From: Octopus vulgaris | Lineage: Eukaryota | Direction: 5' to 3' | NCBI GenBank assembly: GCA_951406725.2 | Contig: OX597820.1 | Span: 71,238,001-71,302,000 of the forward strand | Length of the DNA stretch: 64,000 nt | Shown here: piece by piece, positions 6,135 through 64,000 of the stretch | How positions within the stretch are numbered: position 1 is the first letter of the stretch | Layout of the letters: the number at the start of each line of letters is the position of its first letter | Notes under the pieces: generated by a model | Told to the model about the DNA's origin: nothing | The model's database searches: none | The model's input: only the letters and a program-made list of their open reading frames with translations | Translations under genes and position numbers: made by a program

Positions 6135-8446
6135 AGAGCCAGAAAGGAAGGTAGGAGACAGATTTATTTAGCCAGAGGGGAAGCAGATAAGAAAAAATTT
6201 GCCAATGTTCTGTGCCGTGAGGATCAAAGACTTGAGGTATTTCGTGTTGCAAGACAGTGTGTGAGAGAGAATTGTGATGTATGAAAGAAATGTGTCCGCA
6301 TGGATGATGGTTCTGTATAATTAACCAGGTGATACATGAAGGAGTCATACCCAATGACTGGTGTAGCAGCATAATAGCCAACTGCTACAAAGGTAAAGGT
6401 GACATTTTATATACAAATAATTACAGAGATATCAAGTTGTTGGATCAGGTAAAGAAGGTCATGGAGAAGGTCATAGCCCAACTAATTAGGGAGAGAGTCA
6501 GTTTAGATGAGATGCAGTTTGGGTTTGTGCCAGTGAAAAGTACCACTGATGCTATATTTCTGGTAAGACAGCTGCAGGAGAAATACCAAGCCAAAGATAA
6601 ACCTCTGTACCTGGATTTCGCTGTCATGGAGAAAGCCTTTGACAGGGTCCCCCAATCTCTTATCTGGTGGTCAATGAGGAAACTAGGGATAGATTAATGC
6701 TTAGTGAGAGCTGTGCAAGCCATGTACAGGGATGCTATCAGTAAGGTGAGGGTTGGCAACGAGTACACTGAAGAATTCAGGGTAGAGGTAGGGGTCCACC
6801 AAGGTTCAGATCTCAGCCCCCTCCTATTTATCATAGTCCTCCAGGCAATAACGGAGGAATTCAAGACGGGATGCCGCTGGGAGCTCTTCTATGCTGATGA
6901 CCTTGCTCTAATTGCTGAGTCACTATCAGAACTCGAGGAGAAGTTTCAAGTGTGGAAACAAGGATTAGAGTCAACCTAGCTAATACCAAAGTCCTAATAA
7001 GTAGGAAGGCAAGCAAATCACAAATCCCTTCGGGTAGTTGGCCCTGCTTGATCTGTAGAAAAAGGGTAGGTAGAAACTCAATAAGATGTACCCACTGTAA
7101 GCTACGGACACATAAGAGGTGCAGCAATATCAAAGGAAGGCTAACTGGGAAGATAGTTTTTGTATGTGGCAGATGCTCAGGAGCAATAAACACTGAAAGT
7201 GTGCAGAGAACAAGTTCTGCCACATTCCAGGGAGGAAAACTAGATGCAGCTGATAGCTTCCATTACCTAGGTGATCAAGTCAGTAGCAGGGGAGGGTGTG
7301 CTGAAGGTGTAGCTGCTAGAATAAGAATAGCCTGGGCAAAGTTCAGAGAGCTCTTACCTCTGCTGGTGACAAAGGGCCTCTCACTCAGAGTAAAAGGTAG
7401 ACTGTATGATGCATGTGTACTAACAGCCATGCTACATGGCCGTAAAATATGGGCTGTGACTGCTGAGGGCATGCGTAAGCTTGCAAGGAATGAAGCCACT
7501 ATACTCCGATGGATATGTAATGTCAGTGTGCATACTCCACAGAGTGTAAGTACCTTGAGAGAAAAGTTGGACCTAGGAAGCATCAGATGTGGTATGCAAG
7601 AGAGACAACTGTGCTGGTATGGCCATGTGGCAAGAATGGATGTGGATAGCTGTGTGAAAAAGTGCCATATCCTAGTGGTTGAGGGAATCTGTGGAAGAGG
7701 TAGACCCAAGAAGACCTGGGATGAGGTGGTTAAGGATGACCTTTGAACATTGGCAATGAGTAGTGGCAATAACTAGTGACCGAGTTAAGGACTAGTGACC
7801 GGGACCTTTGGAAATAAGCTGTGCTTGAGAAGACTCGGCAAGCCAAGTGAGACCATAACCTTGTGGCCTATGCCAGGGGTGTAACCAGCCCACTATGCAT
7901 AACTTTCCTTCATTGGACAGTAAACTCTGCTTGCAAAGACCTGTTTTGAGGCAACTGAAATTCAAAATCAAAATCGAAATCAAATTCGATGATTGGCACC
8001 TGTGCTAGTGGAGTGCTAAGAGCACCATCCGAGCATGATATTGCCAGAGCAACAAACTGGCTTCCATGCCAGTGGCATGTAAAAAGCACCATTCAATGGT
8101 GATCGTTACCTGTCACCTAATTGGTACCTGTGCTGGTGGCACATGAAAAAATATTCAAGCGAGGTCATTGCCAGTGCCGCTGGACTGGATTCTGTGCAGA
8201 TGGCACATAAAAAGCACCATTTAAGTGAGGCCATTGCTAGTACCACCTGAATGGCACTCGTGCCAGTCATACATAAATGCACCCACTACACTCACGGAGT
8301 GGTTAGTGCTAGGAAGGGCATCCAGCTGTAGAAACTTTGCAGAATCAGATTGGAGCCTGGTGCAGCTATCTGGTTCTCCAGTCCTCAGTCAAATCGTCCA
8401 ACCCATGCTAGCATGGAAAGCGGATGTTAAACGATGATGATGATGA
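6135..8446 (+). mobile_element. Decayed, 5'-truncated RTE-clade LINE (RT pseudogene plus 3' UTR)
   Basis: Frameshifted ORFs 6329-6697, 6704-6979 and 6952-7746 with QFGFVP, KAFDRV, GVHQGS.LSPLLF and YADDL motifs. Internal deletion near 6320 relative to the 62-64 kb copy. 3' UTR with degenerate ~60-bp units and a (GAT)n tail. Confidence 0.93.
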
Positions 8447-20807: not shown

Positions 20808-21692
20808 TGTGGTCTGATCAATAAGTATCTGGACTGTTGCCATAGTAACGAAGCTTAAGCACACAGAGCGAAACTGATTGGTACAGATTGACCTTGCTGT
20901 GCATGAGCACTTGGTTTTAACATTCTAGCTCACTTCTGTTGTTTACAGCAGTACTTGAAAGGAAGGTGTGTAGCATGTGATTGTCGTATTAATCGTAACA
21001 GAGAAAGCTGAGCAGGGAATCTGCATCAAATTCTGCCAAAAGCTTGGCAATACTTGGTCAGTGGTTCATGCAAAGTTTTCAGAAAGTTTTCATTGTTCTC
21101 AACACAGTCAAGATCTTGTGTAACTGAAACCCGAGTATTGTTTTGATCAGCTGAAAGTAGTTTTGGCACAAACTTGGCAGACATACGTCTCATACCCAAA
21201 TCTTCATTGAAAATGGACGGAACTGAACTGTAACTAATCTGCACATCCTCTGATAACTCACAGATGGTAATTTGACGATTTCCCCTCACAGCTGCATAAA
21301 CATCTGAAATGTTTTTCTCAGTTCTGCTGGTTGTGGGTCTCCCAGAGCGTTTCTCAATATCAACAATATTTTGGTCATCTTGGAAACGTCTGAACCACTT
21401 GTACGCTTGTGTGCAGCTCATACACTCCTCTCCATACACTTTCTTCAACTTTGTGTAGGCCTCTGAGCAGCTATTACGATGACAACTTTCTCTGTCATGG
21501 TCAATGCGATGATCACACGCTACATGCCTTCCTTCCAAGTACTGCTGTAAACAGTGGAAGTGAGGTAGAATGTTAAAACTTTGTGCATATGCACAGCGGA
21601 GTTTAAAGTCAATCTTTGCCAAGCAGCTTCACTCTGCGCGCTGTAGCTTCATTATTAATGCAACTGTCCGGATATTTATTGATCAGCTCTTG
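20808..21692 (-). mobile_element. Non-autonomous mariner derivative (same family as 5228-6105)
   Basis: TA-flanked ends GGTCTGATCAATAAGTATCTGGAC / GTCCGGATATTTATTGATCAG. ORF 21026-21622 gives a mariner N-terminal HTH (KVYGEECMS..QAYKWFRRF..RSGRP..AKFVPKLL) with the catalytic domain deleted. Confidence 0.85.
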
Positions 21693-22192
21693 TATATATA
21701 AATATGTATATAAATATCTATACCTATGTATATCTTTGTGTGTGTGTGAGAGTATGCTTGCATGTATGTTATGATATAAACGTTGTTTATCTTGTTTACA
21801 TAACCCATCCCTAATAATTTGACCTCATTTAAATCCATTCTATCAATAGTCTCCAGTCATTTTTCTTCCTCTGTGAAACCAAATCGAGGAAAGCAGCCTG
21901 GCTACTTTAATTCTTGAGACTATATGGAAAGCGATATGACACGAAGAGAAAAATACCAACTTATAAGCTGAAACTAAAATAATTTGTCAAAACATTCTAA
22001 CATTCTAATGTGCTTCTAAGTATAAATGTATACTTATGCTAACATGATGTCTTTTAAAGACTTTATTGACAACATCTGTATTTAATACATAACAATTATG
22101 TATGTATGTATGTATGTATGTGTGTATGTATGTATGTATGTATATTTATGTATATATGATGATGATGATGATGATATATATATATATATATA

Positions 22193-23464
22193 TTAGGTCA
22201 TCAGGTATGAAATTTGTTGAAAAGAAATAAAAAGGCATAAATACAAGGAATAGTTTTATTCATCAAAGTATGCACCCATATTGTCAATATACTTAGCCAT
22301 TATCCAGTGGTAGCTTGTCCAGCCCAGAACTGTAAAAGCCTGGAAATCTAGAGTCAATAAAATTTTAGAAGGCCTGTTTTACAGCATCATCGGAATTAAA
22401 TTTTTTTCCAATCAAAAAGTTATCCAAATTTTGGGAGAAGTGGTAGTCAGTGGGGACAAGATCAGATAAGTATGGTGGATGATGGAAAACTTCGAACTCC
22501 TGCTCCTGTAATTTTGCCAATGTCATTTTTGTGTGGTCTGGAGTTGTCTTACAATAAAATAGGAGTGGATCTGTTGACTAATCTAGGGTATTTTTTTTGT
22601 AAGTTTCTGCATAATTTGGTCCAGTTGGTTGCAGTATACTTCGGCCATGATCGATGAGCCAGGTTTAATGAAATCATAATGGATCACACCTGCTCCAGGC
22701 CACCAAACACACACCATCAGCTTCTTTTTATGAATTTTGCTTTGTGGGCTGTGTTTTGGTGGCTTGTCTTTGTCCAACCATTGTGCTAAACATTTACGGT
22801 TGTTGTATTGGATCCATTTCTCATCACATGTTACAGTTCGATTAAAAAATGATGCATTTTTGTGATGAGAAAGTAGAATAATGCAGGCTTCTAAACATTA
22901 TTGTTTCTGGTTTTCATTGGATTCCTGTGGAACCAATTTATCCAATTTTTTCATTTTACTGATTTGAACTAGGTGAGTCAATATTGTTTGCTTGCTAACA
23001 CCAAACAACAACGATAATTCACAGGCACTTTGAGATGGATCTGACTCGACAGTGGCTTTCAGTTTGTCATTATCCATCTTTGTTTCTGGTCAACTGCATT
23101 GCTCGTTTGTGAAGTCAAAGTTACCAGAACGAAATTTTGCAAACCAATTTAATACTGTCTGCTGTGTAATAACATTAGAAAGAAATACTCCATTAATATT
23201 CTGAGCTGTCTGTGATGCAGTATTTCTAGAAAGAACTCATATTTCAAAACTATACAAATTTCCCACTTATCCATCCCTAAACAAAAATAGTAGAAAATGA
23301 TTTATAAATACTTTATAAGGTGCAAAATGAGTTAGAATAAAGAAATAGGTGTGTCAGCTTTCTAACAAAAAATAAAGATTTTCAAAATATAATAATGGCA
23401 GAAAATGAGCAGGTGTCAAAGTTTACCATATATCTTACTACAAATTTCATACTTGATGACCTAA
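22193..23464 (-). mobile_element. Full-length decayed mariner element (~1.27 kb, DD34D)
   Basis: TA|TTAGGTCATCAGGTATGAAATTTG...CAAATTTCATACTTGATGACCTAA|TA. Confidence 0.92.
22256..23274 (-). pseudogene. mariner transposase pseudogene
   Basis: Fragments MDKWEICIVLKYEF, VTCDEKWIQY, KKLMVCVWW, DNSRPH, HPPYLSDLVPTDYHF and GAYFDE*, with stops and frameshifts. Confidence 0.9.
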
Positions 23465-23569: not shown

Positions 23570-23808
23570 TTATATATATATAAGAGCAAATAAATGGCAC
23601 AACGAAGTACCGATATTTACTGGAAAATAGCGTGCTTTCCAGTAAAGAATAGCCCGTGAGGGAAAATTATACATAATTACTATTTATATATATATATATA
23701 TATACCGGAGTAAACACATAAATGTGAAACAAGGTGGAAAAAAGAGTACTCAAATACCAGTGGTAGAGTAATATGCTTTATTTTAAGCAGCAGAAAATTC
23801 AACAAAAT

Positions 23809-23846
23809 CTGTTACTCTGAGTTTCTCGTTGCCGTTCATCAGACAG
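23809..23846 (-). ncRNA. Minimal type I hammerhead ribozyme
   Basis: Reverse complement of 25460-25497. Confidence 0.7.
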
Positions 23847-24907
23847 TTTTTGCTAGAATGGAACCGATATATCAATTCAATCTATCCTCTTACAAACGCT
23901 ACACCTTTAAAAAGAAATGGACTTGTTTGATTGGCCCTTTAGAAAAAACGGTCAATCTTCGAGCGATAAACAAAAAGGTCAAAAATATATGTATATATAT
24001 ATATAAAAAACTTATAAAAATTATAAAATTCGAGGAAAAAACCTTACATTGAATAAAATACATATTGACGTTAATGAAGAAAGTGCAAATTAATGCATAG
24101 AAATTAAACCTGTTATAAATATTACACTGCAATACATATTTATATTAAAATCTACATATATATATCAACATACACAAAATTATGCGTGCAAACGCCATAC
24201 ATATACAGACGTATGAATATAAATCTAAATATACACATAAAAGCATGTGTACATATATTCACGCAAAACCATCTCGCACGCAAGTTAAAAAAGATCTATG
24301 TAGCGATTCTCATATACTGAGTAAGGGGGGAACGAAAGAAAGGGAGAGAGAGAAAAGGAACGAAGGAGGTGTAGGGAAAAAAACGAAATAAGAAAAAATT
24401 ATGTATACAAGCAGTGTAACGGCATTATGGCATATAAGGAGACAAGTATACATACATAAGTTTGAATGGATACAGTCGTGTATATGTGTGCTTAAGCACA
24501 AACATACTTTCACTTACACATACACAGATACACATGCTTACAAATACATATGCTTTGCTATGCACATACTTATATCAACATTCTAATTTTGACAACATTG
24601 CTTTTTTTAAAAAAACATTGCTTTTTTTAAAAAAAATGGGTGCATTAATAAAAATATATACGAAAGACATATAAAATAAAATATAACATCCTATTTTGGG
24701 TAATTTATAAATAATTAAGGTAATATAAATAATCAAGGTAATCCTATATAATACAATAACATGAAAACAAAGTTGGAGGTTTTTCCTAATATATATGTAG
24801 AAACATAAGACTTTGCTATACGGATTAAGATCCGTATAGCTTGGAAACAAAATCCATCGTAGCGCTCATCGTTCAAGAGTCAAAATCAAAAATACAAAAT
24901 ATATACT

Positions 24908-25170
24908 CTATCCATATGGTATATTTATATTCGACATTTTAAATTTAGCCGCGTGCCTACATAAGTTCATTAGCTCGCTTCTTTGATTCAAAGAATTATT
25001 GTCTTTGAATAAGATGTACATTTTTTCTAATAGACAAAGCTTGCACTTGAAATTATTTTTGTAAGCTCCATGCCTGTATGGTGCCGCCCTGTCCAGAATG
25101 CTCCATGTCACGTTGAAAGGTGGGGCTTCCTTTTCATTTAGTTCCCAGACATATTTTGGTAGGCTGGTTT
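24908..25170 (-). pseudogene. C-terminal part of a Penelope-like GIY-YIG endonuclease
   Basis: TSLPKYVWELNEK...VTWSILDRAAPY...CKLCLLEKMYIL...LNQRSELMNLCRHAAKF is a typical PLE endonuclease end (CxLCxxEK, LNxRxE, CRH). Confidence 0.8.
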
Positions 25171-25459
25171 GTATTGCAGTGTAATATTTATAACAGGTTT
25201 AATTTCTATGCATTAATTTGCACTTTCTTCATTAACGTCAATATGTATTTTATTCAATGTAAGGTTTTTTCCTCGGATTTTATAATTTTTATAAGTTTTT
25301 TATATATATATATACATATATTTTTGACCTTTTTGTTTATCGCTCGAAGATTGACCGTTTTTTCTAAAGGGCCAATCAAACAAGTCCATTTCTTTTTAAA
25401 GGTGTAGCGTTTGTAAGAGGATAGATTGAATTGATATATCGGTTCCATTCTAGCAAAAA

Positions 25460-25497
25460 CTGTCTGATGAACGGCAACGAGAAACTCAGAGTAACAG
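25460..25497 (+). ncRNA. Minimal type I hammerhead ribozyme
   Basis: Stem I CTGT/ACAG, core CTGATGA, stem II CG-GCAA-CG, GAAA, stem III ACTC/GAGT, cleavage triplet GUA (after 25493). Confidence 0.75.
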
Positions 25498-25529
25498 ATT
25501 TTGTTGAATTTTCTGCTGCTTAAAATAAA

Positions 25530-25600
<71 letters not shown>

Positions 25601-44156: not shown

Positions 44157-44457
44157 CATTAAGCTATACAAACACTGGGCTACAAATAACAGCCAATTCT
44201 CCCTAAAATCTCACTCTGCAGCCTTAAAAAAGAGGAATACGTTAGCAGTACATGGTGTGTAGGGACCCCCCCCCCCAAAAAAAAAAAATTTTTAGATTGA
44301 ATGGTTTTCCTCAATGGTCTTAGAGCGCAGAGGTGGTACTCCCATTAATTATATAATTCAACACTTTCTTCTCCTTTAGAAATGAATATGCAGCGTCAGA
44401 ACTCTGAATGTATGGCAAAATATCATAAAAACATTTTGAATAACAATAAATCGAATT

Positions 44458-47359
44458 GGTACTTGTCAATTGTCGTGGTCCCGGTTTTGCACACGCGAAT
44501 TCGCGCGTGCGCGCCAGACGTAGGTACTCGATACTCGAGATCCTACGAGGTGACTTGCGCATGCGCAGTGCAGAATTCGCGCGTGCGCGTTAACCCCCCC
44601 CCCTAAAAAAAAAAGGTGTTGGATTTCACTAAAAATATATGTGTGTGTGTGTGTGTGTATATATAACATTTTCAATTTTACACAAAAAAATTACATAGTC
44701 GCTTTCCTCGCGGATTTACAGAGAAATGAATTAATTACTATTTTACAGAATAAAATTAATGAATTAATTATATAAATTAAATAATTCTTGAAAATTAATT
44801 AATATTAATAATATTTTTTGAACAAAGTAAATAATTTATAAAACTTGGTTAATAATTTTTTTTACACAAACGCGAACGTATATAATTTGTGAAACTTTTT
44901 TTTTTTACAGACGTATATAATTTGGTAAACTTAATGAATTAATTTCTTCTCATCATCATCATCGTTTAACGTCCGTTCTCCATGCCAGCATGGGTTGGAC
45001 GGTTCGACCGGGGATCTGGGAAGCCAGAAGGCTGCACCAGACTCCAGTCTTATCTGGCAATGTTTCTACAGCTGGATGCCCTTCCTAACGCCAACCACTC
45101 CGAGAGTGTAGTGGGTGCTTTTTACATGCCACCCGCACAGGTGCCAGGCGAGGCTGGCAACGGCCACGGTCGGATTGGTGCCAGTCGAGGCGGCTCTGGC
45201 ATCGGCCACGATTCGGATAGTGCTTTTTACGTACCACCAGTCCAGGGGTCCTGGCATTTGCCGGGTGCCACACTTGCCCCAACATGTCTTCGCAAGCAAA
45301 GGGGGTTGGCATGGGTGCCTGTCGTGGGATGAGGTTCGATATCAACTTCGCTTGCCTCAACAGGTCTTTGTGTATAAATGTATAAATTTTTCGCACTAAA
45401 TTCTTTCCGTAGAATTTATAAAAAAACGCGCAAAATTATTCCGTAGACTTTATCAAATTAAAAAACGCAAAATTAATATATTTTTTGAAATTGCAAATTA
45501 TTTAGAATATAAAACAAATTAAGTTAAATTTTAAAAATAAATGTCATATACTTATACTCTGTAAGGTGCTGTGTTCACACTTCAATTTACTATTTTCTAG
45601 AAATGTTGCTTTTCTAATTGAAACAATTTTTCTCAATCTCCATTTAAAAGTCCATAATGCCTCTTGAGCCATATCAAAATGAACAACTTTGAATTACCCG
45701 GTGGTGGTGGTGGTGGTGTGAGGTTCTAATTTTTTTTCTGATCTCTCTTTGCCCCCTCTTTATCTCAGTTGTTCATTCAGCTAATATTTAGAAAAATTTT
45801 CGCGCCCAATTTTTGTTGTCGCGGGAAAAGATGAACGATTTAAAATAAATATATCTTAATTGTAGTGTGAGAAAGTATATATATTCTGATGACAAAATAT
45901 ATTATCTTTCAAAAACATCCCAAATTTATAGACTATATCGTGTAGGTTTAAGAAATATATATATATATATATATATAGATATAGATATATATATATATAC
46001 ATATATAAGTAGAGAATGAAACATCTTTCATCTGTCTCCCCACCACACCTCCATCTAGGGGGGGCAAAGAGAGATCAGAAAAAAAATTAGAACCTCACAC
46101 CACCACCACCACCGGGTAATTCAAAGTTGTTCATTTTGATATGGCTCAAGAGGCATTATGGACTTTTAAATGGAGATTGAGAAAAATTGTTTCAATTAGA
46201 AAAGCAACATTTCTAGAAAATAGTAAATTGAAGTGTGAACACAGCACCTTACAGAGTATAAGTATATGACATTTATTTTTAAAATTTAACTTAATTTGTT
46301 TTATATTCTAAATAATTTGCAATTTCAAAAAATATATTAATTTTGCGTTTTTCAATTTGATAAAGTCTACGGAATAATTTTGCGCGTTTTTTTATAAATT
46401 CTACGGAAAGAATTTAGTGCGAAAAATTTATACATTTATACACAAAGACCTGTTGAGGCAAGCGAAGTTGATATCGAACCTCATCCCACGACAGGCACCC
46501 ATGCCAACCCCCTTTGCTTGCGAAGACATGTTGGGGCAAGTGTGGCACCCGGCAAATGCCAGGACCCCTGGACTGGTGGTACGTAAAAAGCACTATCCGA
46601 ATCGTGGCCGATGCCAGAGCCGCCTCGACTGGCACCAATCCGACCGTGGCCGTTGCCAGCCTCGCCTGGCACCTGTGCGGGTGGCATGTAAAAAGCACCC
46701 ACTACACTCTCGGAGTGGTTGGCGTTAGGAAGGGCATCCAGCTGTAGAAACATTGCCAGATAAGACTGGAGTCTGGTGCAGCCTTCTGGCTTCCCAGATC
46801 CCCGGTCGAACCGTCCAACCCATGCTGGCATGGAGAACGGACGTTAAACGATGATGATGATGAGAAGAAATTAATTCATTAAGTTTACCAAATTATATAC
46901 GTCTGTAAAAAAAAAAGTTTCACAAATTATATACGTTCGCGTTTGTGTAAAAAAAATTATTAACCAAGTTTTATAAATTATTTACTTTGTTCAAAAAATA
47001 TTATTAATATTAATTAATTTTCAAGAATTATTTAATTTATATAATTAATTCATTAATTTTATTCTGTAAAATAGTAATTAATTCATTTCTCTGTAAATCC
47101 GCGAGGAAAGCGACTATGTAATTTTTTTGTGTAAAATTGAAAATGTTATATATACACACACACACACACACATATATTTTTAGTGAAATCCAACACCTTT
47201 TTTTTTTTAGGGGGGGGGTGGTTAACGCGCACGCGCGAATTCTGCACTGCGCATGCGCAAGTCACCTCGTAGGATCTCGAGTATCGAGTACCTACGTCTG
47301 GCGCGCGCGCGCGCGCATTCGCGTGTGCAAAACCGGGACCACGACAATTGACAAGTACC
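44458..47359. mobile_element. 2.9-kb non-coding fold-back DNA transposon (Merlin-like termini)
   Basis: Arms 44458-45756 and 46060-47359 are near-perfect reverse complements around a 303-bp spacer. Termini GGTACTTG...CAAGTACC. Perfect 8-bp direct repeat ATCGAATT at 44450-44457 and 47360-47367. Confidence 0.88.
44951..45372 (-). mobile_element. RTE LINE 3' tail nested in the left fold-back arm (mirror copy at ~46441-46862 on +)
   Basis: (CAT)n, RTE tail and minisatellite units; the ORF-track translations are identical in the two arms. Confidence 0.9.
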
Positions 47360-50300
47360 ATCGAATTATAGCTAAATGAATAATATTTTATTTCACTTTC
47401 AAAATTGTTTTATTTTCACTTAATGACGAGCGCAAGTCCTCTCTTCATCATGAAGTACCAAGGCAGCGAGCTGCCTTTACGTTCTGTGTTCAAATTCCAC
47501 CGAGGCGACTTTGCTTTTCATCCTTTCGAGGTCGATAAAATAAATGTAATCGATTTATTCCTTCCTCGAAATTACTGGCCTTGTGCCAAAATTTGAAACT
47601 AATCTAGAGGGGCTTCTGCTCGGTCACTCAGATTGCTGGAAATAATTAATAACTTAATTTTCTTAAATTACATAGTGAATAAAAGGGTAAGATAGGACCA
47701 CAGAATTTAGTGTAGACCTAGATATACAAAAAGACGGAATGATCGTGGATGGAACGTCTTTTCTATAATCCCTGTCCCATGTATAATAACAAGTACTGAA
47801 CGTAATCTCCGAGGGTTCCTCTGTGTTGTCGATCGAGCCATTAGAAATAGCAGCTAGACAGACGCAGAATTCACTTTTCGTTTGACATCTAAAAATTTCA
47901 TTTTGTTATTTCCCTCTTTGCATTTTTTAAAATGTAAATTACAAGCCTTATCAGGGAATACTATAACAAAAATAATTTGAATCGTGAAAAGTACGACGGA
48001 GGTGATGGGTTACGAAAAATTTTCTCCAAAAATGCGATTCAAAATGTGGAATATTACAACATGTCAAAGGATAACGAAAATGGAGGAAAAAATGATAGCT
48101 GTTGTTTGGAAGGAAGGATGACGTGGAAGAAGCGAGATGGACTTTTTAAAAAAAAGTCTGCTCTCAAATGTTTTGAAAAGTGGGATTCTATAAAATGAGA
48201 GGAAAAAAAAGCTTCCGATTTATGTGTGACAGCTATTCCGAAAATCCGCCCAATCGCCATATAATTGTCGCTCAACCTGTCTGTCAAATAATAGGCGCGG
48301 AACTGGCAGTCATTTGAGTGCAAGGCTTATGGTTTTGAGTTCAAATCTCATTGAGAATTACCTTTTATCTTTTTTAGACTCAATAAAATAAAGGATGGTC
48401 CTTGTGAAAGTGAAATACATACACCATATGAATAAGGTACGGGAATCCTTTATCGAGAAGTGGGCCGCAATGAGACGAAGCTCATCAACCGGGTCGCACA
48501 AATAAAAAAGTTCAAGGTTTTTCAATGGCATACATTGCAAAAAAGTCCTGCGTACCGTAGTTTGCCCGTAACTCATGAATATACTACAAAGCCGTAATTG
48601 TTTTGTACGGTTTTACTTTTCTCGAACGGTATAGTGGAATTTAAAGTAGGTTGTTTCTAATATAGCACAAAAAACCCTAAGAAAAGAAATGAACAAAAAA
48701 TGGAACAATAAATGTCACATAAAATTCAAAGTTAGTTCGCATTATTTTACATGGTGTTTCATGAAAAGAATGAAAGCAAATATGCCATTTGACAGAAGTA
48801 AAAAATACTGCTTTCTGATTTAGGCAAAAAGACATTTTGTGGAGCGTGGTAACTGACAATTATCAACATCAGTACCTAACTGATACTTTATCTACTCTGA
48901 AAGTCAGAGTTGATATCAACAGTCTTTGAACTCAGAATGTAAAGGGTCTGAATAAATTTCGCATAGTGGAAGTTGTGAATTAGAAGAATGGCGAACCTTC
49001 GGTGTAAGTACCGGAAGTACTGGATACATTTCAAAAAAGTGTTTTTTTTTATATATGGGGGCGGGGGCTGTTTAGGGTTTGGGTTAGGCATGGGAGAAAA
49101 GGGTTTCTGTTATCTTCAGAAATGTAAACAAAGTCACTCGTGTACATATACCGAAGCATCGCCAAGGGCAATCTTTCGGTATTGGTACGCAACGTCATTT
49201 ATCCACACAACCTTCCTTCATGATATAAAGAGGCTAGTCTCGTCTCCTGATACCGACTCTATAGACAATTGTCGAAGGATCACCATGGAGAAATACCGCA
49301 AGATATCTCCTTTCAACGTTCAAACGATTTAACACCACCACCCGGTCCTTAGATATTTCCAAGTATTTCTTCCGACGCTCTGCAACCTCGCCGCTTTTTT
49401 GTGCCAGAATTAAGATACACGATGCTCGAATATTTGTGATAAACTCATTTTAGGCGCTGACCTGGCCTAAAAGCAACGACTATTCATTATTAAGCTAAAT
49501 AAAGAACTTGAAAGTTGCTTAAATGAAATAATTTCTCATTACTCTAGGGACAAGTAAAACACACTAGTTAGATTTTTGAATAAGGAAAAGGTTAAAAAAT
49601 ATTTTTGTGGCATTAAATCACCTTTTGAAGTTTACATTTGTTTTTCTTTTGCCACAGTTAAGAATCTCAGTATGTTTTCATATATGAAAAAGGAGTATAT
49701 TAAAAGGAATGCAAAGCCTGTTTGTATTGTGAACCTCAACACGTTACTTTATTGTTCTTTTCTTTTTATTTTTCTCCAAATAACTATTAGTTCTTACATC
49801 TCTTTTAATATTCTTTTTTATGTGACAACCTGCTGAGATTCCTAACACAAACAATCTTTGCATCTTTTTTTTTTTAGTATGCTTTTTCATATATAAAAAA
49901 CATGTTGAGGTTCATAACACAAACATTCTTCTCTTCCCTATTAATGTACGCTCATGAACACAGAAGTTCTGCCGTGACGAAAAAATAAAAATGAAAACCT
50001 AGAGAAGTTGTTACGGAAGCTAAAATATTTTTTTATCCAAGGAAAATCTAGCTTTAAATGTAAAACATCACATACATCCCGTACATCATTACATAATCCA
50101 TTTAAGGTTAACAAGTATAGTGTCGAAAAATTCGCTTCTTTTTTGTACCCCGAAAGCGCTATTCGGCATAGTTTGTACAATTATATAATGTTGATGTAAC
50201 CGCAGTTTAGTCATTCGTATTTTGTGAAAGCAATTACTTGGAGAATTAATTGTATTTCTAGGGAATAAATATTGTAAATGATGTTTGCATTCTGTTTCAT

Positions 50301-50774: not shown

Positions 50775-52390
50775 AATCTTTATTATAGGCACGATGGCCC
50801 GAATTAAGAGGGGACATTACAAAACAGGACATAGGGTACATATAATTAAAAAAATCGAAAAATATGAAGTGAAAATGAATTATTTATAATGAATTAAATG
50901 GAATGGCTTACGAGCCCCCCAAAACTCGCAGTTTCATTTAAAATACTGGACGTTCATCTGTAATGTATTCTATTAACCTCTCCTGGTCTACAATCGCTGG
51001 CAAACTGTTGTAACAGATATATGGTATTTCGCAAACAGTCGAAAACACACTTTTCAATTTCATCAATGTCTCTTTCTCTACGACTGCCGACTTCACTTGG
51101 TCATCAAATATTTTGGGGTTCAACCTAACCCTGATTAAACCTTTCTTACCTGCCAGTCTCTTTTCGATTTCTTTGTCTTTCATATACAATATTACTGCTT
51201 TAAGATTTTTTCCTTCGGGTCTTCCTCCTTCCTTACATACTTTTAACTGTTCTTCCACTCTTCTTTCCCATTCTTGCTCTGCCGTTAAATTTGCCGGTTC
51301 TCTCGCTTTCGCTTTTGCATCCTTATCTTCGCACGTTCGATCTTCCATCTCGTCTGTAGTCTTATTTTTCGCTTTTTTCTTTTTTTGAACTTTAGGTGGT
51401 GATTCCACCCTCGCTCTCTTTCTATCTTCTTTTCCTTCTGTTCTTTCCTTTTCTTTCTCCAACTCGTCACCACTTTCCACATTTTCTGTCTTCACACATT
51501 CTTCATCCGCCATTTGCAATATCTCTGTCCGAGCTTCCAATGTTCTCGTCGGACACACATCTTTCATGTGGCCTCTAATTTTACATGTGTAGCACACTGG
51601 GGGGGGGTCTCCCCTCCACCACGACTCTGAGTCGTGTCTCGTCGGGGAACACCAACTCCTCTGGGATATTATACAGGTCTGGCATGGTTATATGAACCAA
51701 AGCCTGCACCGCATAACCCCACAACTGTACATCTTTTGACCTTTCCACCTTCAATATTTCAACGCTTTCTTTGCAGTTGAATACCACTGCCGCTAAGATT
51801 CCTTCCATGTTCAGCTCCGGCGAAATCTTACTGATTCGCACTCTTACTGCCCCCTTTCCACAACAACTTGGTAATAACATTCATTTTTCTGTTTTCAGTA
51901 TTTGCGTGGCACCCTTCTTCGCCTCGTCCTTGTTTTTAAAATGAACGACCACTGTTGCGTACTTTCTACCTCTATTATAGAAGGTAGGTTCTCCCTCAAT
52001 TCCATTCAGACAGCACTCAATTTCCTCTATCGGTGCCACTTCTATTCTCTTTGAAGTCACGCTCCACGCTCCGTATGTTATAGTACGCTTCTCTGCCTCT
52101 TTCGCTTCCTCTTCGGATGGTGCGACCTTCACACAGTCACCCTCTTTCTTCAAGCTGTCGAAACATTTCTTCAAAATCTCCTTCTCGATGATAACTTCTT
52201 CCAACTGCAATTCGCTCGCAGCCAGGCCCCCGCCTGCCGCTCCCGCATACGTTTGGGTTTGCATTTTCGAGAAAAACCTCCCAAAAATCTCCCACGCTGC
52301 AACTGCTTCCACCAACGAACTCGATCTCACAACCGCGACACAACAATAACGCAATCAAAATTTCCGACACAAACAAAAAAAACCGTATTC
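50775..52390 (-). mobile_element. ORF1-only L1/Tx1-like non-LTR element
   Basis: Short 5' leader, a single gag/ORF1-like frame, a ~150-bp 3' UTR and AATAAA at ~50779-50784. No endonuclease or RT follows. Confidence 0.6.
50938..52264 (-). pseudogene. ORF1/gag-like zinc-knuckle protein with one in-frame TGA (51881-51883) and one frameshift in a G/C run (~51599-51607)
   Basis: N-terminus MQTQTYAGAA (TYAxAA, as in L1/Tx1 ORF1), VVVEGRPP-VCYTCKIRGHMKDVC (CX2CX4HX4C knuckle) and a K/E-rich linker. Confidence 0.7.
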
Positions 52391-52850: not shown

Positions 52851-53628
52851 GGATCTTTTCCTTTTGAACGGCACTTTTCAACACAATTTCTAGTTAACTA
52901 AACACTTTTAAACTTCGTATACTGGTAGAATGTGTTTATAAAACATCATTTTCTCTTGGCTTTATTGAGAAAATTCTATATGTTGTAACATATTTCGTCT
53001 TTAATTTCGAGCATTTCGGCAATTTTAACCAATCGCTGACCTCCATATAGGTAAATAACATTCTGTGCATAATGAATATGTCCCTCCTTTAAGAAACAGA
53101 TTGGGTTTATTTACATTTGTGAAGAAAAAAGATACCCTTCCCCTAACTAAATCTAAAATAGATTGAAATGCAATAGATCGATACTAGGGTTATAGTTATG
53201 GGTGACAATTTCATACGACACCGCTACGGAAAATTGGATTTTTTTCTAGCTGTGTCAAATGAAAATGTCACCATAATTATGTCCCAAGTATCGATCTATT
53301 GCATTTCAATCTATTTTAGATTTAGGGTTAGTTAGGGGAAGGGTATCTTTTTTTCTTCACGAATGTAAATAAACCCAATCTGTTTCTTAAAGGAGGGACA
53401 TATTCACTATGCACAGAATGTTATTTACCTAAATGGAAGTTAGCGATTGGTTAAAATTGCCGAAATGCTCGAAATTAAAGACGAAATATGTTACAACATA
53501 TAGAATTTTCTCAATAAAGCCAAGAGAAAATGATGTTTTATAAACACATTCTACCAGTATACGAAGTTTAAAACTTTTTAGTTACCTTGAAATTATGTTA
53601 CAAAGTGCCGTTCAAAAGGAAAAGATCC
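52851..53628. mobile_element. 778-bp fully palindromic MITE (Merlin-like termini)
   Basis: GGATCTTTTCCTTTTGAACGGCAC...GTGCCGTTCAAAAGGAAAAGATCC; the arms pair almost to the centre (~53236). Flanks TGTAAATG / TGTAAGTG give an 8-bp TSD with one mismatch. Confidence 0.85.
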
Positions 53629-61140: not shown

Positions 61141-61542
61141 GACAAAAACTTTTGAGAGGGGAGGGGCAATTAGAGGAGGTGATCTTGTGTCAGATAATGA
61201 AAGGTTGTAGTAAGACAGGTGTTTTGCTGTAGAGGAGGTACAAGGTTACGAGAGAGAGAGCTTACATTGTTGAAATCACATTCACTTAAAAATCATGTAG
61301 TTAAGAAGTGAAATTCTTAACTATATAACCAAGTTGTAAACTAGATTAAGAATCAAATTTACTTTCATTATACACATCATCATCATCATCATCATTTAGC
61401 GTCCGCTTTCCATGCTAGCATGGGTTTGGACGGGTCAACTGGGGTCTGTGAAGCTGGAAGGCTTCGTCAGGCCCAGTCAGATCTGGCAGTGTTTCTACGG
61501 CTGGATGCCCTTCCTAACGCCAACCACTCCGCGAGTGTAGTG

Positions 61543-62218
61543 GGTGTTTTTTTACGTGCCACCTGCACAGGTGCCAGACAGAGCTGGCGAACGGCCACGA
61601 ACGGATGGTGCTTTTACGTGTCACCGGGACGGGGCCAGGCAGAGCTGGCAAACGGCCACGAACGGAGGGTGCTTTTACGTGTCACCGGCACGGGGGCCAG
61701 CCGAGGCTGACAACGAACACGAACGGATGGTGCTTTTACGTGCCACCGACACGGGACCAGACAGAGCTGGCAAACAGCCACAAACGGACGGTGCTTTTAC
61801 GTGTCACCGGCACGGGGGCCAGCCGAGGCTGGCAACGGACGCGAACGGATGGTGCTTTTACGTGCCACCGACACGGTTGCCAGACAGTGCTGGCAAACAG
61901 CCACGAACGGACGGTGCTTTTACGTGTCACCGGCACGGGGGCCAGCCGAGGCTGGCAACGGACACGAACGGATGGTGCTTTTACGTGCCACCGACACGGG
62001 GCCAAACAGAGCTGGCAAACGGCCACGAACGGACGGTGCTTTTACGTGTCACCGGCACGGGGCCAGACAGAGCTGGCAACGAACACGAACTGATGGTGCT
62101 TTTACGTGCCACCAACACGGGGGCCAGGCAGAGCTGGCAAACGGCCACGAGCGAATGGTGCTTTTACGTATCACCGGCACGGGTGCCAGACGAGGCTGAC
62201 AGCGGACACGAACGGATG
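61543..62218. repeat. Minisatellite of 11 units of ~61 bp in the RTE 3' UTR
   Basis: GGTG(C)TTTTACGT starts at 61543, 61607, 61668, 61729, 61790, 61851, 61913, 61974, 62035, 62095 and 62157. Confidence 0.95.
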
Positions 62219-62266
62219 GGTCACTTAACCCCTGCTTTCTGATATATGATTTGATTTTGATTGTTC

Positions 62267-64000
62267 TCACTGGTCTTGCCGGGTCTTCTCACACACAGCA
62301 TACTTCCATAGGTCTCGGTCTCTGGTCATTTCCTTGGTGAGACCTAGAGTTCGAAGGTCGTGCTTCACCACCTCGACCCAGGTTTTCCTGAGTCTACCTC
62401 TTCCACAGGTCCCCTCAACTGCCAGGGTGTGGCACTTTTTCACACACCTATCTTCATCCATTCTCGCCACATGACCATACCAGCGCAATCGTCTCTCTTG
62501 CACACAACATCTGATGCCTCTTAGGTCCAACTTTTCTCTCAAGGTACTTACACTCTGTCGACTATGAACACTGACATTACACATCCAACGGAGCATACTA
62601 GCTTCATTTCTCGCGAGCTTACGCATGTCCTCAGCAGTCACGGCCCATGTTTCACTGCCATGTAGCATGGCTGTTCGTACACATGCATCATACAGTCTGC
62701 CTTTTACTCTGAGCGAGAGGCCTTTAGTCACCAACAGAGGTAAGAGCTCCCTAAACTTTGCCCAGGCTATTCTTACTCTAGCCATTACACTTTCAGCACA
62801 CCCACCCCCACTACTGACTTGGTCACCAAGATAACGGAAGCTATCAACTACTTCTAGTTTTTCCCTCTGGAAAGTGACGGAAGTTGTTTTCTGCAGATTT
62901 TCAGAGATTAATGCTCCCGAGCATCTGCCACATACAAAAACCATCTTCCTAGTTAGCCTTCCTATGACATTGCTGCACCTCTTATGTGTCCATAGCTTAC
63001 ACTTGGTGTATCTTATAGAGTTTCTACCTACACCTTTTCTACAGATCGAGCAGGGCCATCTACCTGAAGGTGTTTGTGATTTGTCTACCTTCCTACTTAT
63101 TACGACTTTGGTTTTAGCTAGGTTGACTCTAAGGCCCTTAGATTCTAAACCATGCTTCCACACCTGAAACTTCTTCTCCAGTTCTGATAATGACTCAGCA
63201 ATTAGAGCAAGGTCATCAGCATAGAGGAGCTCCCAGGGGCATCCTGTCTTGAATTCCTCCGTTATTGCCTGGAGGACTATGATAAATAGGAGGGGGCTGA
63301 GGACTGAGCCTTGGTGGACCCCTACCTCTACCCGGAATTCTTCACTGTACTCATTGCCAACCCTCACCTTACTAGCAGCGTCCCTGTACATGGCTTGCAC
63401 AGCTCTCACTAACCATTCATCTATTCCTAGTTTCCTCATTGACCACCATATGAGGGATCGGGGGACCCTATCGAAGGCTTTCTCCATGTCAACAAAAGCC
63501 AGGTACAGGGCCTTATCTTTGGCTAGGTATTTCTCCTGCAGCTGCCTTACCAGGAATATAGCATCAGTGGTACTTTTCCCTGGCACGAAACCAAACTGCA
63601 TCTCATCTAAACTAACTCTCTCTCTAATTAGTTGGCTTATGACCCTCTCTGTAACCTTCATCACCTGATCCAACAGCTTGATACCTCTGTAATTATTTGT
63701 ATCTAGGGCATCACCTTTACCTTTGTAGCAGTTGACTATTATGCTGCTACACCAGTCATTGGGTATGACTCCTTCATGTATCACCTGATTAACTATACAG
63801 GTGACTAGGCTATAGCCGACACTACCAGATATTTTGAGCATCTCTGCAGTGATACCTGATGGGCCTGGGGCTTTCCCTGTCTTCATGCTTCTAATTGCCT
63901 TAGCTACCAAGGAACTATCAACCCTGATAGCTGGTCCCTCTGTTGGGTCAACGTTCGGCAGACTCTCTTTATCCCATTCATTTTCTTTATTCAGCAACCT
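62267..64000 (-). CDS. RTE LINE ORF, 3' part (reverse transcriptase with an inserted Cys/His finger); 5' end lies outside the window
   Basis: 576 uninterrupted codons containing KAPGPSG, NYRGIKLL, QFGF.PG.ST.DAIF, FVDMEKAFDRV, GVHQGSVLSPLLF, LYADDL, FRYLG and RLRWYGHV. Confidence 0.95.
   Translation of the reverse strand, partial: RLLNKENEWDKESLPNVDPTEGPAIRVDSSLVAKAIRSMKTGKAPGPSGITAEMLKISGSVGYSLVTCIVNQVIHEGVIPNDWCSSIIVNCYKGKGDALDTNNYRGIKLLDQVMKVTERVISQLIRERVSLDEMQFGFVPGKSTTDAIFLVRQLQEKYLAKDKALYLAFVDMEKAFDRVPRSLIWWSMRKLGIDEWLVRAVQAMYRDAASKVRVGNEYSEEFRVEVGVHQGSVLSPLLFIIVLQAITEEFKTGCPWELLYADDLALIAESLSELEKKFQVWKHGLESKGLRVNLAKTKVVISRKVDKSQTPSGRWPCSICRKGVGRNSIRYTKCKLWTHKRCSNVIGRLTRKMVFVCGRCSGALISENLQKTTSVTFQREKLEVVDSFRYLGDQVSSGGGCAESVMARVRIAWAKFRELLPLLVTKGLSLRVKGRLYDACVRTAMLHGSETWAVTAEDMRKLARNEASMLRWMCNVSVHSRQSVSTLREKLDLRGIRCCVQERRLRWYGHVARMDEDRCVKKCHTLAVEGTCGRGRLRKTWVEVVKHDLRTLGLTKEMTRDRDLWKYAVCEKTRQDQ

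Follow-up and report, generated by a model that had tools for sequence, protein, structure and literature searches.

The window, by which we mean the whole 64,000-bp stretch of Octopus vulgaris DNA analysed here, contains a 2,902-bp fold-back element at 44458-47359 with the termini GGTAC...GTACC, and contig depth in 4/4 public runs indicates that it likely belongs to a multi-copy family of tens of copies. We propose, at about even confidence, that the element is a non-coding fold-back, that a Merlin (IS1595-type) transposase mobilises it in trans and that its arms grew by the copying of one arm onto the other. The features of the element are listed below.

44450-44457, no strand: left target-site duplication (TSD), ATCGAATT; chance about 4e-5
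44458-45759, + strand: left arm (long terminal inverted repeat, TIR), starting with GGTAC; multi-copy contigs in 4/4 runs
44458-44597, + strand: GC-rich terminal domain with 59% GC and 20 CpG, from the composition of the left arm end
44950-45373, - strand: 424-bp part of a SINE-like repeat of very high copy number, bearing a (CAT)n tail on the left, from the copies in the window
45405-45475, no strand: 34-bp tandem duplication in 2 copies, inside which the short-arm-variant joint 44883 to 45425 lands
45760-46056, no strand: AT-rich spacer that is non-coding and includes a (TA)n tract; its length is 297 bp when set by blastn extension and 303 bp when set by strict pairing
46057-47359, - strand: right arm, mirroring the left arm and finishing with GTACC, from the arm alignment
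46440-46863, + strand: mirror copy of the SINE-like piece, 424/424 identical to the left-arm piece
47360-47367, no strand: right target-site duplication, ATCGAATT, an exact match to the left one

The architecture was much as the original prediction had drawn it, a giant fold-back (44458-47359) with near-identical 1.3-kb arms. The left arm (44458-45759) and the right arm (46057-47359) are identical at 1294 of 1307 alignment columns. They differ by 4 substitutions and 5 gap events, among them a CG-run variant, the lengths of poly-C, poly-A and poly-T runs, an A/G difference at 45460, one GGT unit and a mismatch at the inner edge; all but the last had been listed before. Strict pairing of the arms ends at 45756/46060 and reproduces the 303-bp AT-rich spacer described earlier, while blastn extension gives a spacer of 297 bp with 26% GC. 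The arms account for 89.8% of the element, in line with the palindrome of about 90% that had been claimed, and inverted arms of this great length on either side of a non-coding centre are those of the fold-back class. The 8-bp duplication and GG termini were likewise recovered, with ATCGAATT flanking GGTAC...GTACC exactly on both sides (44450-44457 and 47360-47367). By chance, a non-trivial 8-mer would recur exactly at this spacing with a probability of 4e-5 (74 of 1,836,028 window positions). The duplication is exact over 8 bp in the single copy whose ends were seen, in which a 6-bp reading is also possible.

A Pfam scan of all 26 stop-to-stop frames of at least 35 aa in the left arm and spacer gave no match at the curated cut-off (0/26), which agrees with the predicted lack of coding capacity; two frames gave weak matches to unrelated families (E 0.06-0.09). 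Neither the DDE_Tnp_IS1595 transposase domain (0/26) nor a transposase of the Mutator-like (MULE) type was found among these frames, and Rfam returned no match at E<=0.1 over 44400-46100. Since Repbase Merlin-N elements also lack DDE_Tnp_IS1595, its absence here bars an autonomous Merlin and leaves a Merlin-mobilised element in place.

Contig depth was taken in four public runs (X1, X2, X3 and X9) with single-copy flank contigs as the reference; 12 of the 20 word-sharing runs, with under half of the words, were left out. No RNA run appears in the list of word-sharing runs, which speaks neither for nor against expression. The arm contigs were about 70-210x deeper than the single-copy flank contigs in the four runs, and the element is not a single-locus artefact. 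In X3 the arm contigs stood at 113x, 151x and 211x and the left arm-spacer junction at 68x; the corresponding values in X9 were 73x, 117x and 120x for the arms and 31x for the junction, and an arm contig in X2 reached 101x the single-copy flank depth. These ratios are rough, and copy counts may be about half because the single-copy depth of X3 reads 13-22. Within the window itself, no further copy of the non-SINE arm or spacer was found except one (TA/TG)n match.

The element had also been called recently mobile and non-autonomous. Its depth and lack of coding support a multi-copy, non-autonomous element that is likely mobile and probably young. In X2, record 9, which is 632 nt long and has a single-copy depth of 46.4, matches the left flank as far as 44457 and continues with 134 unlike letters, and two paralogous flank records likewise end at 44457. 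This suggests that record 9 is a candidate empty site and that the insertion is young and missing from at least one related sample. The check for an empty site proposed originally thus yielded a candidate that departs exactly at the edge of the element, and none within the 64-kb window. The flank-to-element contig of X3, which may be the source sample, reaches 28 nt into the element, below the 31-nt bridging rule, and no contig in X1 or X9 carries the flank allele of the window at 44395.

Both arms contain the 424-bp piece, which we take to be a SINE in the orientation given above. The piece is 100% identical from arm to arm and 66-89% identical to other copies within the window, and no clear flanking duplication of its own was found, the best repeat on either side being 5 nt. 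In the public runs the depth summed over the SINE-like repeat reaches as much as tens of millions, and contigs of this repeat stop at 45373. The SINE-bearing arm looks family-wide because an X9 contig with a depth of about 120x joins the final 29 nt of this piece to the inner arm. A shorter arm variant without the SINE piece also exists, as shown by two joints, one linking 44538 to 44856 and the other linking 44883 to 45425; both stand at about 31-42x in X2, X3 and X9 and were absent for X1 among the matches listed. The shorter variant omits 541 nt, more than the 424-nt SINE piece alone, and therefore fits a gain as well as a loss of the SINE. Because an identical SINE piece is found in both arms and a SINE-less arm variant exists, it is likely that one arm served as the template for the other, a mechanism also put forward for Galileo. 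The mirrored piece and the shorter SINE-less variant had both been overlooked in the original prediction.

We envisage the following history. A transposase encoded elsewhere would bind the GC-rich outer ~140 bp at both ends, excise the element and reinsert it with an 8-bp stagger. An ancestral element may have gained the SINE-like piece in one arm, as its present structure suggests, and the repair of a break templated by the opposite arm or by another copy would have placed the piece and its neighbours in the second arm, a step that parallels the proposal for Galileo TIR extension. Judging from depth, the SINE-bearing form could then have spread to tens of copies alongside shorter relatives that share its ends but lack the SINE. 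The GC-rich terminal domain is the likely transposase-binding end. It contains a 17-bp motif twice (44497-44513 and 44573-44589) and a nested hairpin (z = -3.6; 0/200 shuffles equally stable), and, outside the SINE, its bins are the deepest of all in X1 and X3 and rank with the deepest in X2, which does not hold for X9. The divergence between the arms, tried as a clock with a rate of 0.0036 per site per Myr, came to 0.1-0.4 Myr. This figure was not accepted as an age, since the differences between the arms are reset by arm conversion or by polishing.

Similar arms are known from Galileo 2-TIR and extended-TIR elements of Drosophila mojavensis, which PMC3573991 describes as non-coding, nearly all TIR, 1.7-2.2 kb long and 98-100% identical between arms, with internal sequence drawn into both arms via repair or conversion. 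Galileo, however, belongs to the P superfamily and, as described there, recruits its own internal sequence or tandem repeats, whereas the octopus element mirrors a foreign SINE-like piece. Neither the octopus family nor a SINE mirrored in both TIRs was described in the literature searched, which took in few of the subscription papers.

Merlin is our best guess for the superfamily, at roughly even strength, from features that are not diagnostic. GGTAC fits GGNRM, a consensus for Merlin ends on which a literature search found no relevant paper, and under the 8-bp reading the terminal 5'-GG is present as GGTAC at both ends of the one copy. Ends with 5'-GG and TSDs of 8-9 bp are given for the superfamily in PMC8101967, the supplement of which assigns 191 Merlin-like proteins to O. 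bimaculoides, the most among the protostome species listed. For O. vulgaris, PMC13282606 counts 18 families of Merlin; two of these have been active recently, and their 11 insertions cover 28,998 bp. At about 2.6 kb each on average, the young families come near the 2.9 kb of the element, in a comparison of size only, and the element may or may not belong to these two families. An arm of 1.3 kb is less novel than the original prediction implied, since the S1 Table of PMC8101967 lists the Repbase elements Merlin-N5_DR and Merlin-1_DR of zebrafish with 1,000-bp TIRs. Merlin-N5_DR has kilobase arms as in the octopus element and is also entered without a transposase domain. It differs in its 113-bp tandem arrays (PMC8101967 S1 Table), which the octopus element lacks; in the latter, compared by description only, the 1.3-kb arms are 90% of the length and a SINE-like piece is mirrored.

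The same fold-back with the same arm-copying history might instead be moved by a MULE transposase, which we consider rather unlikely. The commonest TSD length of MULEs is 9 bp, whereas the duplication here has exactly 8 bp and leaves no room for a ninth. According to PMC5499845, MULEs carry TIRs longer than 100 bp and TSDs of 8-10 bp, with which the 1.3-kb TIR and 8-bp duplication agree, and Muta1 has the end GGGTCTACCC, a GG start as in the octopus element and a TSD of 8 or 9 bp. The GG ends and, under the 8-bp reading, the duplication length on which Merlin mobilisation had been predicted do fit, but MULEs such as Muta1 share both. Fold-backs are mostly reported as Mutator in PMC4079207, where Tetris, a Mutator-type element, shares long TIRs (up to 1,735 bp) around a non-coding middle, with 8-10-bp TSDs. 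In addition, 55 Mutator families are reported for O. vulgaris, 21 of them recently active as against 2 for Merlin (PMC13282606). On the other side, the TIRs of Tetris and Muta1 consist of tandem subterminal repeats as described in PMC4079207 and PMC5499845, and the octopus arm has no such array of the FB, Tetris or Muta1 sort; its repeats are microsatellites, the 34-bp doublet and the 17-bp motif found twice.

The choice of ends also bears on the superfamily. If the true ends were TGG..CCA with a 6-bp duplication, TCGAAT, the element would point to IS3EU/GingerRoot or another integrase-like superfamily, which we regard as improbable. The arms do pair one base further, TCGAAT is found on both sides, TG..CA can be read, and an empty site would look alike under the 6-bp and 8-bp models. 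GingerRoot elements have 6-bp TSDs and occasionally TG..CA ends, but the ends of IS3EU/GingerRoot are mostly TA..TA, according to PMC10045372. Under a simple composition model the likelihood ratio is 2.6 in favour of 8 bp, and a second fold-back in the window, though of a different family, admits a single reading, with GG ends and 8 bp. The preference for 8 bp expressed originally is favoured by this small ratio, whereas its dismissal of the 6-bp alternative had considered only Polintons and left GingerRoot aside.

Could the symmetry have been produced by assembly or polishing, through the mirroring of a dispersed-repeat arm or the polishing of two unlike arms to one consensus? The differences between the arms are mostly in homopolymers or microsatellites, no contig from the runs examined spans the whole element, and with tens of copies reads map to many places; polishing with such reads may have raised the apparent identity of the arms. 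However, the arms stop symmetrically at an exact 8-bp duplication beyond which the flanks differ, which an artefact would not make. Moreover, the arms are 1.7-3.9x deeper than the left spacer junction in X3 and X9, consistent with two arms per spacer, and one substitution between the arms, at 45460, is outside repeats. We judge an artefact to be slightly less probable still than the 6-bp reading. It is very improbable that the element is a retroelement stub of the Penelope-like kind with its ends inverted: Penelope-like elements are abundant in O. vulgaris (PMC13282606), but both ends are symmetric base for base without a one-sided tail, and neither a reverse transcriptase or endonuclease frame nor an Rfam ribozyme match was found in the left arm and spacer.

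Returning to a Merlin-driven fold-back, it is possible, though doubtful, that the family is active in octopus, with arms that continually rewrite each other and passengers that are mirrored and carried to new sites. If so, near-perfect 1.3-kb inverted repeats would be scattered through the genome and polymorphic between animals, giving long double-stranded RNA on transcription, fragile hairpins in DNA and a live substrate to work out Merlin transposition. To our knowledge, there is no laboratory study of Merlin transposition. A Merlin transposase as partner, together with polymorphic insertions, would point to a Merlin system that is active today; consequences for RNA editing or rearrangement are speculative. 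Fold-back transposons, kilobase Merlin TIRs and TIR growth via arm-to-arm copying are already in print separately. What the octopus copy adds is a clean marker of arm copying, a foreign SINE-like piece, identical in both arms, together with a SINE-less relative in the same genomes, and the tens of copies in the family could be used to gauge how frequently arms overwrite each other.

In a window-wide scan for TIRs with TSDs, (TA)n matches dominate among the matches listed. The second GG-ended fold-back, at 52851-53628, has a 7/8 duplication and is of a different family from the element at 44458-47359.

The arms of the fold-back element were compared by pairwise alignment. The element and its parts are laid out as follows in forward-strand coordinates of the window.

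Fold-back element and the four parts of each arm
44458-47359: element of 2,902 bp, starting GGTAC and ending GTACC
Flanking duplication: ATCGAATT, an identical copy on each side
44458-45759 and 46057-47359: the two arms
Outer arm part: 140 bp, 59% GC, 20 CpG, with a 17-bp motif in two copies
Second arm part: 350 AT-rich bases, inward of the outer 140 bp
Third arm part: 44950-45373, a 424-bp fragment of a dispersed repeat
Innermost arm part: 386 AT-rich bases, containing a 34-bp doublet

The arms are identical at 1294 of 1307 alignment columns, with 4 substitutions and 5 gap events that match the differences listed in the original prediction, and they make up 89.8% of the element. The spacer measures 297 bp by blastn extension and 303 bp, as first reported, by strict pairing. 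The alignment and the flanking ATCGAATT uphold the proposed structure of near-identical arms, GG ends and an exact 8-bp flanking duplication, probably a target-site duplication (TSD) of that length; an exact non-trivial 8-mer at comparable spacing was found at 74 of the 1,836,028 window positions tested. The claim that the element has no coding capacity also held, as none of the 26 frames of at least 35 aa in the left arm and spacer reached the Pfam cut-off and an Rfam search of this region gave no match. We are highly confident that this is a real, multi-copy, non-autonomous element with terminal inverted repeats (TIRs), and it is probably young.

The outer 140 bp of the arm form a nested hairpin whose stability (z = -3.6) was equaled by none of 200 shuffles. 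The 424-bp piece has many partial relatives elsewhere in the window (66–89% identity) and is the same in both arms at 424 of 424 positions. This repeat is a putative SINE, judging by its abundance, the (CAT)n tail and what is known of octopus repeats. It is implausible that it inserted twice, independently, at one and the same base of each arm, and the structure therefore suggests that one arm was templated by the other, or by another copy, after the SINE piece had been acquired. Only the mirrored SINE merits further attention, since it marks the copying of one arm onto the other. In the literature searched, neither this family nor the mirroring of a SINE across two TIRs was described; the family may already be included in Repbase, Dfam or the Zenodo library of PMC13282606.

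A search of public sequencing runs for the left flank plus the outer arm listed 24 runs, of which 20 contained part of this query and 8 half or more; 11 studies and five organism labels were represented. Contigs of four of these runs (X1, X2, X3 and X9) were compared with a stretch covering the left flank, the left arm and some of the spacer. Single-copy flank contigs had depths of about 57 (X1), 46 (X2), 13–14 (X3) and 7 (X9). Relative to these, individual arm contigs reached 113x, 151x and 211x in X3, 73x, 117x and 120x in X9 and 101x in X2, the left arm-spacer junction 68x in X3 (no differences) and 31x in X9, and a variant spacer 37x in X3 and 46x in X1; these ratios are rough, as one X3 flank contig had a depth of 21.6, and copy counts may be about half. 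Despite the rough depths, the contigs show a family of tens of copies. Arm depth was 1.7–3.9 times that of the spacer junction, which matches the expectation of two arms per spacer.

In X9, a contig with a depth of about 120x extends from the final 29 nt of the SINE piece into the inner arm; the SINE-bearing arm thus appears to be shared throughout the family and to occur under a second organism label. Joints of 44538 to 44856 and of 44883 to 45425, with short sides of only 19–28 nt, occurred at about 31–42x in X2, X3 and X9 and were absent from the X1 rows. The latter omits 541 nt, more than the 424-bp SINE piece, and the joints indicate that a shorter SINE-less arm variant exists. Relative to single copy, the terminal domain (44452-44589) had a summed depth several times as high in X1 as in X3. 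Both runs are of organism A, and the contrast hints at additional short families or at copy numbers that differ between samples, summed depth not being equal to copy number.

At the insertion site, one X3 contig (record 19) crosses from flank to element with no differences, its element side of 28 nt being below the 31-nt threshold; X3 may be the source sample. An X2 contig at single-copy depth (record 9, 632 nt), oriented by contig ends in common, matches the flank up to 44457 and continues with 134 letters unlike the element, which fits a candidate empty site. Two paralogous flank records likewise end at 44457. No contig in X1 or X9 carried the flank allele of the window at 44395, and no contig among those compared for the left part in the four runs covered the whole element. 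The adjoining flank (44347-44457) is a low-copy repeat with 3–4 paralogous contigs per run, so the element lies inside another repeat, other copies of which could act as related empty sites.

We give about even chances to mobilization by a Merlin transposase. Merlin elements have GG ends and 8–9-bp TSDs, and 191 Merlin-like proteins of O. bimaculoides are listed in the supplement of the same paper (PMC8101967). Among molluscs, Merlin is nearly confined to cephalopods according to one automatic survey (PMC10294476), and O. vulgaris has two recently active Merlin families with a mean insertion of about 2.6 kb (PMC13282606). A further point in favor is the second fold-back of the window, which has GG ends and a 7/8 duplication. 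The original prediction put Merlin TIRs at tens to a few hundred bp; this agrees with the cited range of 24–462 bp (Feschotte 2004, as cited in PMC8101967) but not with Merlin-1_DR and the non-autonomous Merlin-N5_DR of zebrafish, each with 1,000-bp TIRs (PMC8101967, S1 Table). The element was not filed as an autonomous Merlin because it has no Merlin transposase domain. A Mutator-like element (MULE) transposase is a possible but less probable mover: MULEs have long TIRs and 8–10-bp TSDs, Muta1 has a GG end and an 8–9-bp TSD (PMC5499845), fold-backs are mostly reported as Mutator (PMC4079207) and O. vulgaris has 21 recently active Mutator families (PMC13282606). A 6-bp TSD with TG..CA ends, a weak fit to GingerRoot (PMC10045372), is unlikely, although disfavored against the 8-bp reading by only 2.6-fold. 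It is quite unlikely that the element is an artefact, and very improbable that it is a Penelope stub.

From the ends and the duplication, it is most likely that a transposase encoded elsewhere, Merlin or otherwise, would recognize the GC-rich ends and excise the element, which would reinsert with an 8-bp stagger. The arms likely grew when a break in one was repaired with the other as template, the route proposed for the extended TIRs of Galileo (PMC3573991), and the SINE-bearing form would have multiplied after this lengthening. The element would thus behave as do Tetris, the 2-TIR copies of Galileo and those zebrafish Merlins that have long TIRs, and it lacks the tandem subterminal arrays that classical fold-backs carry.

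Other features of the window
52851-53628: second fold-back, 778 bp, GGATC...GATCC ends
61370-62260: another copy of the SINE-like repeat of the arms
23771-24136 and 25170-25535: inverted repeat of 366 nt with 99% complementarity, its halves separated by 1,033 nt, no GG ends
6308-7746 and 62349-63800: pair of oppositely oriented, degraded LINE pieces, 87–90% alike
21026-22897: remnants of mariner transposase, matching HTH_48 and Transposase_1
50938-52354: long frames of 249 aa and 157 aa, both on the minus strand

The second fold-back has a 7/8 duplication (TGTAAATG/TGTAAGTG), arms identical at 360 of 390 columns and almost no spacer. Its ends show no likeness to those of the main element past GG, and it is older and a candidate MITE of Merlin or MULE type. 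In the SINE-like copy, an internal unit of ~61 bp has been amplified to about 12 tandem repeats (families D7 and D10). The 366-nt inverted repeat resembles what we take to be a Penelope-type inverted tail. The LINE pieces, the first of which (6308-7746) has an RVT_1 match in Pfam, are presumably of RTE type. The minus-strand frames had no Pfam match, and a zinc-knuckle-like motif suggests to us a presumed LINE ORF1 remnant.
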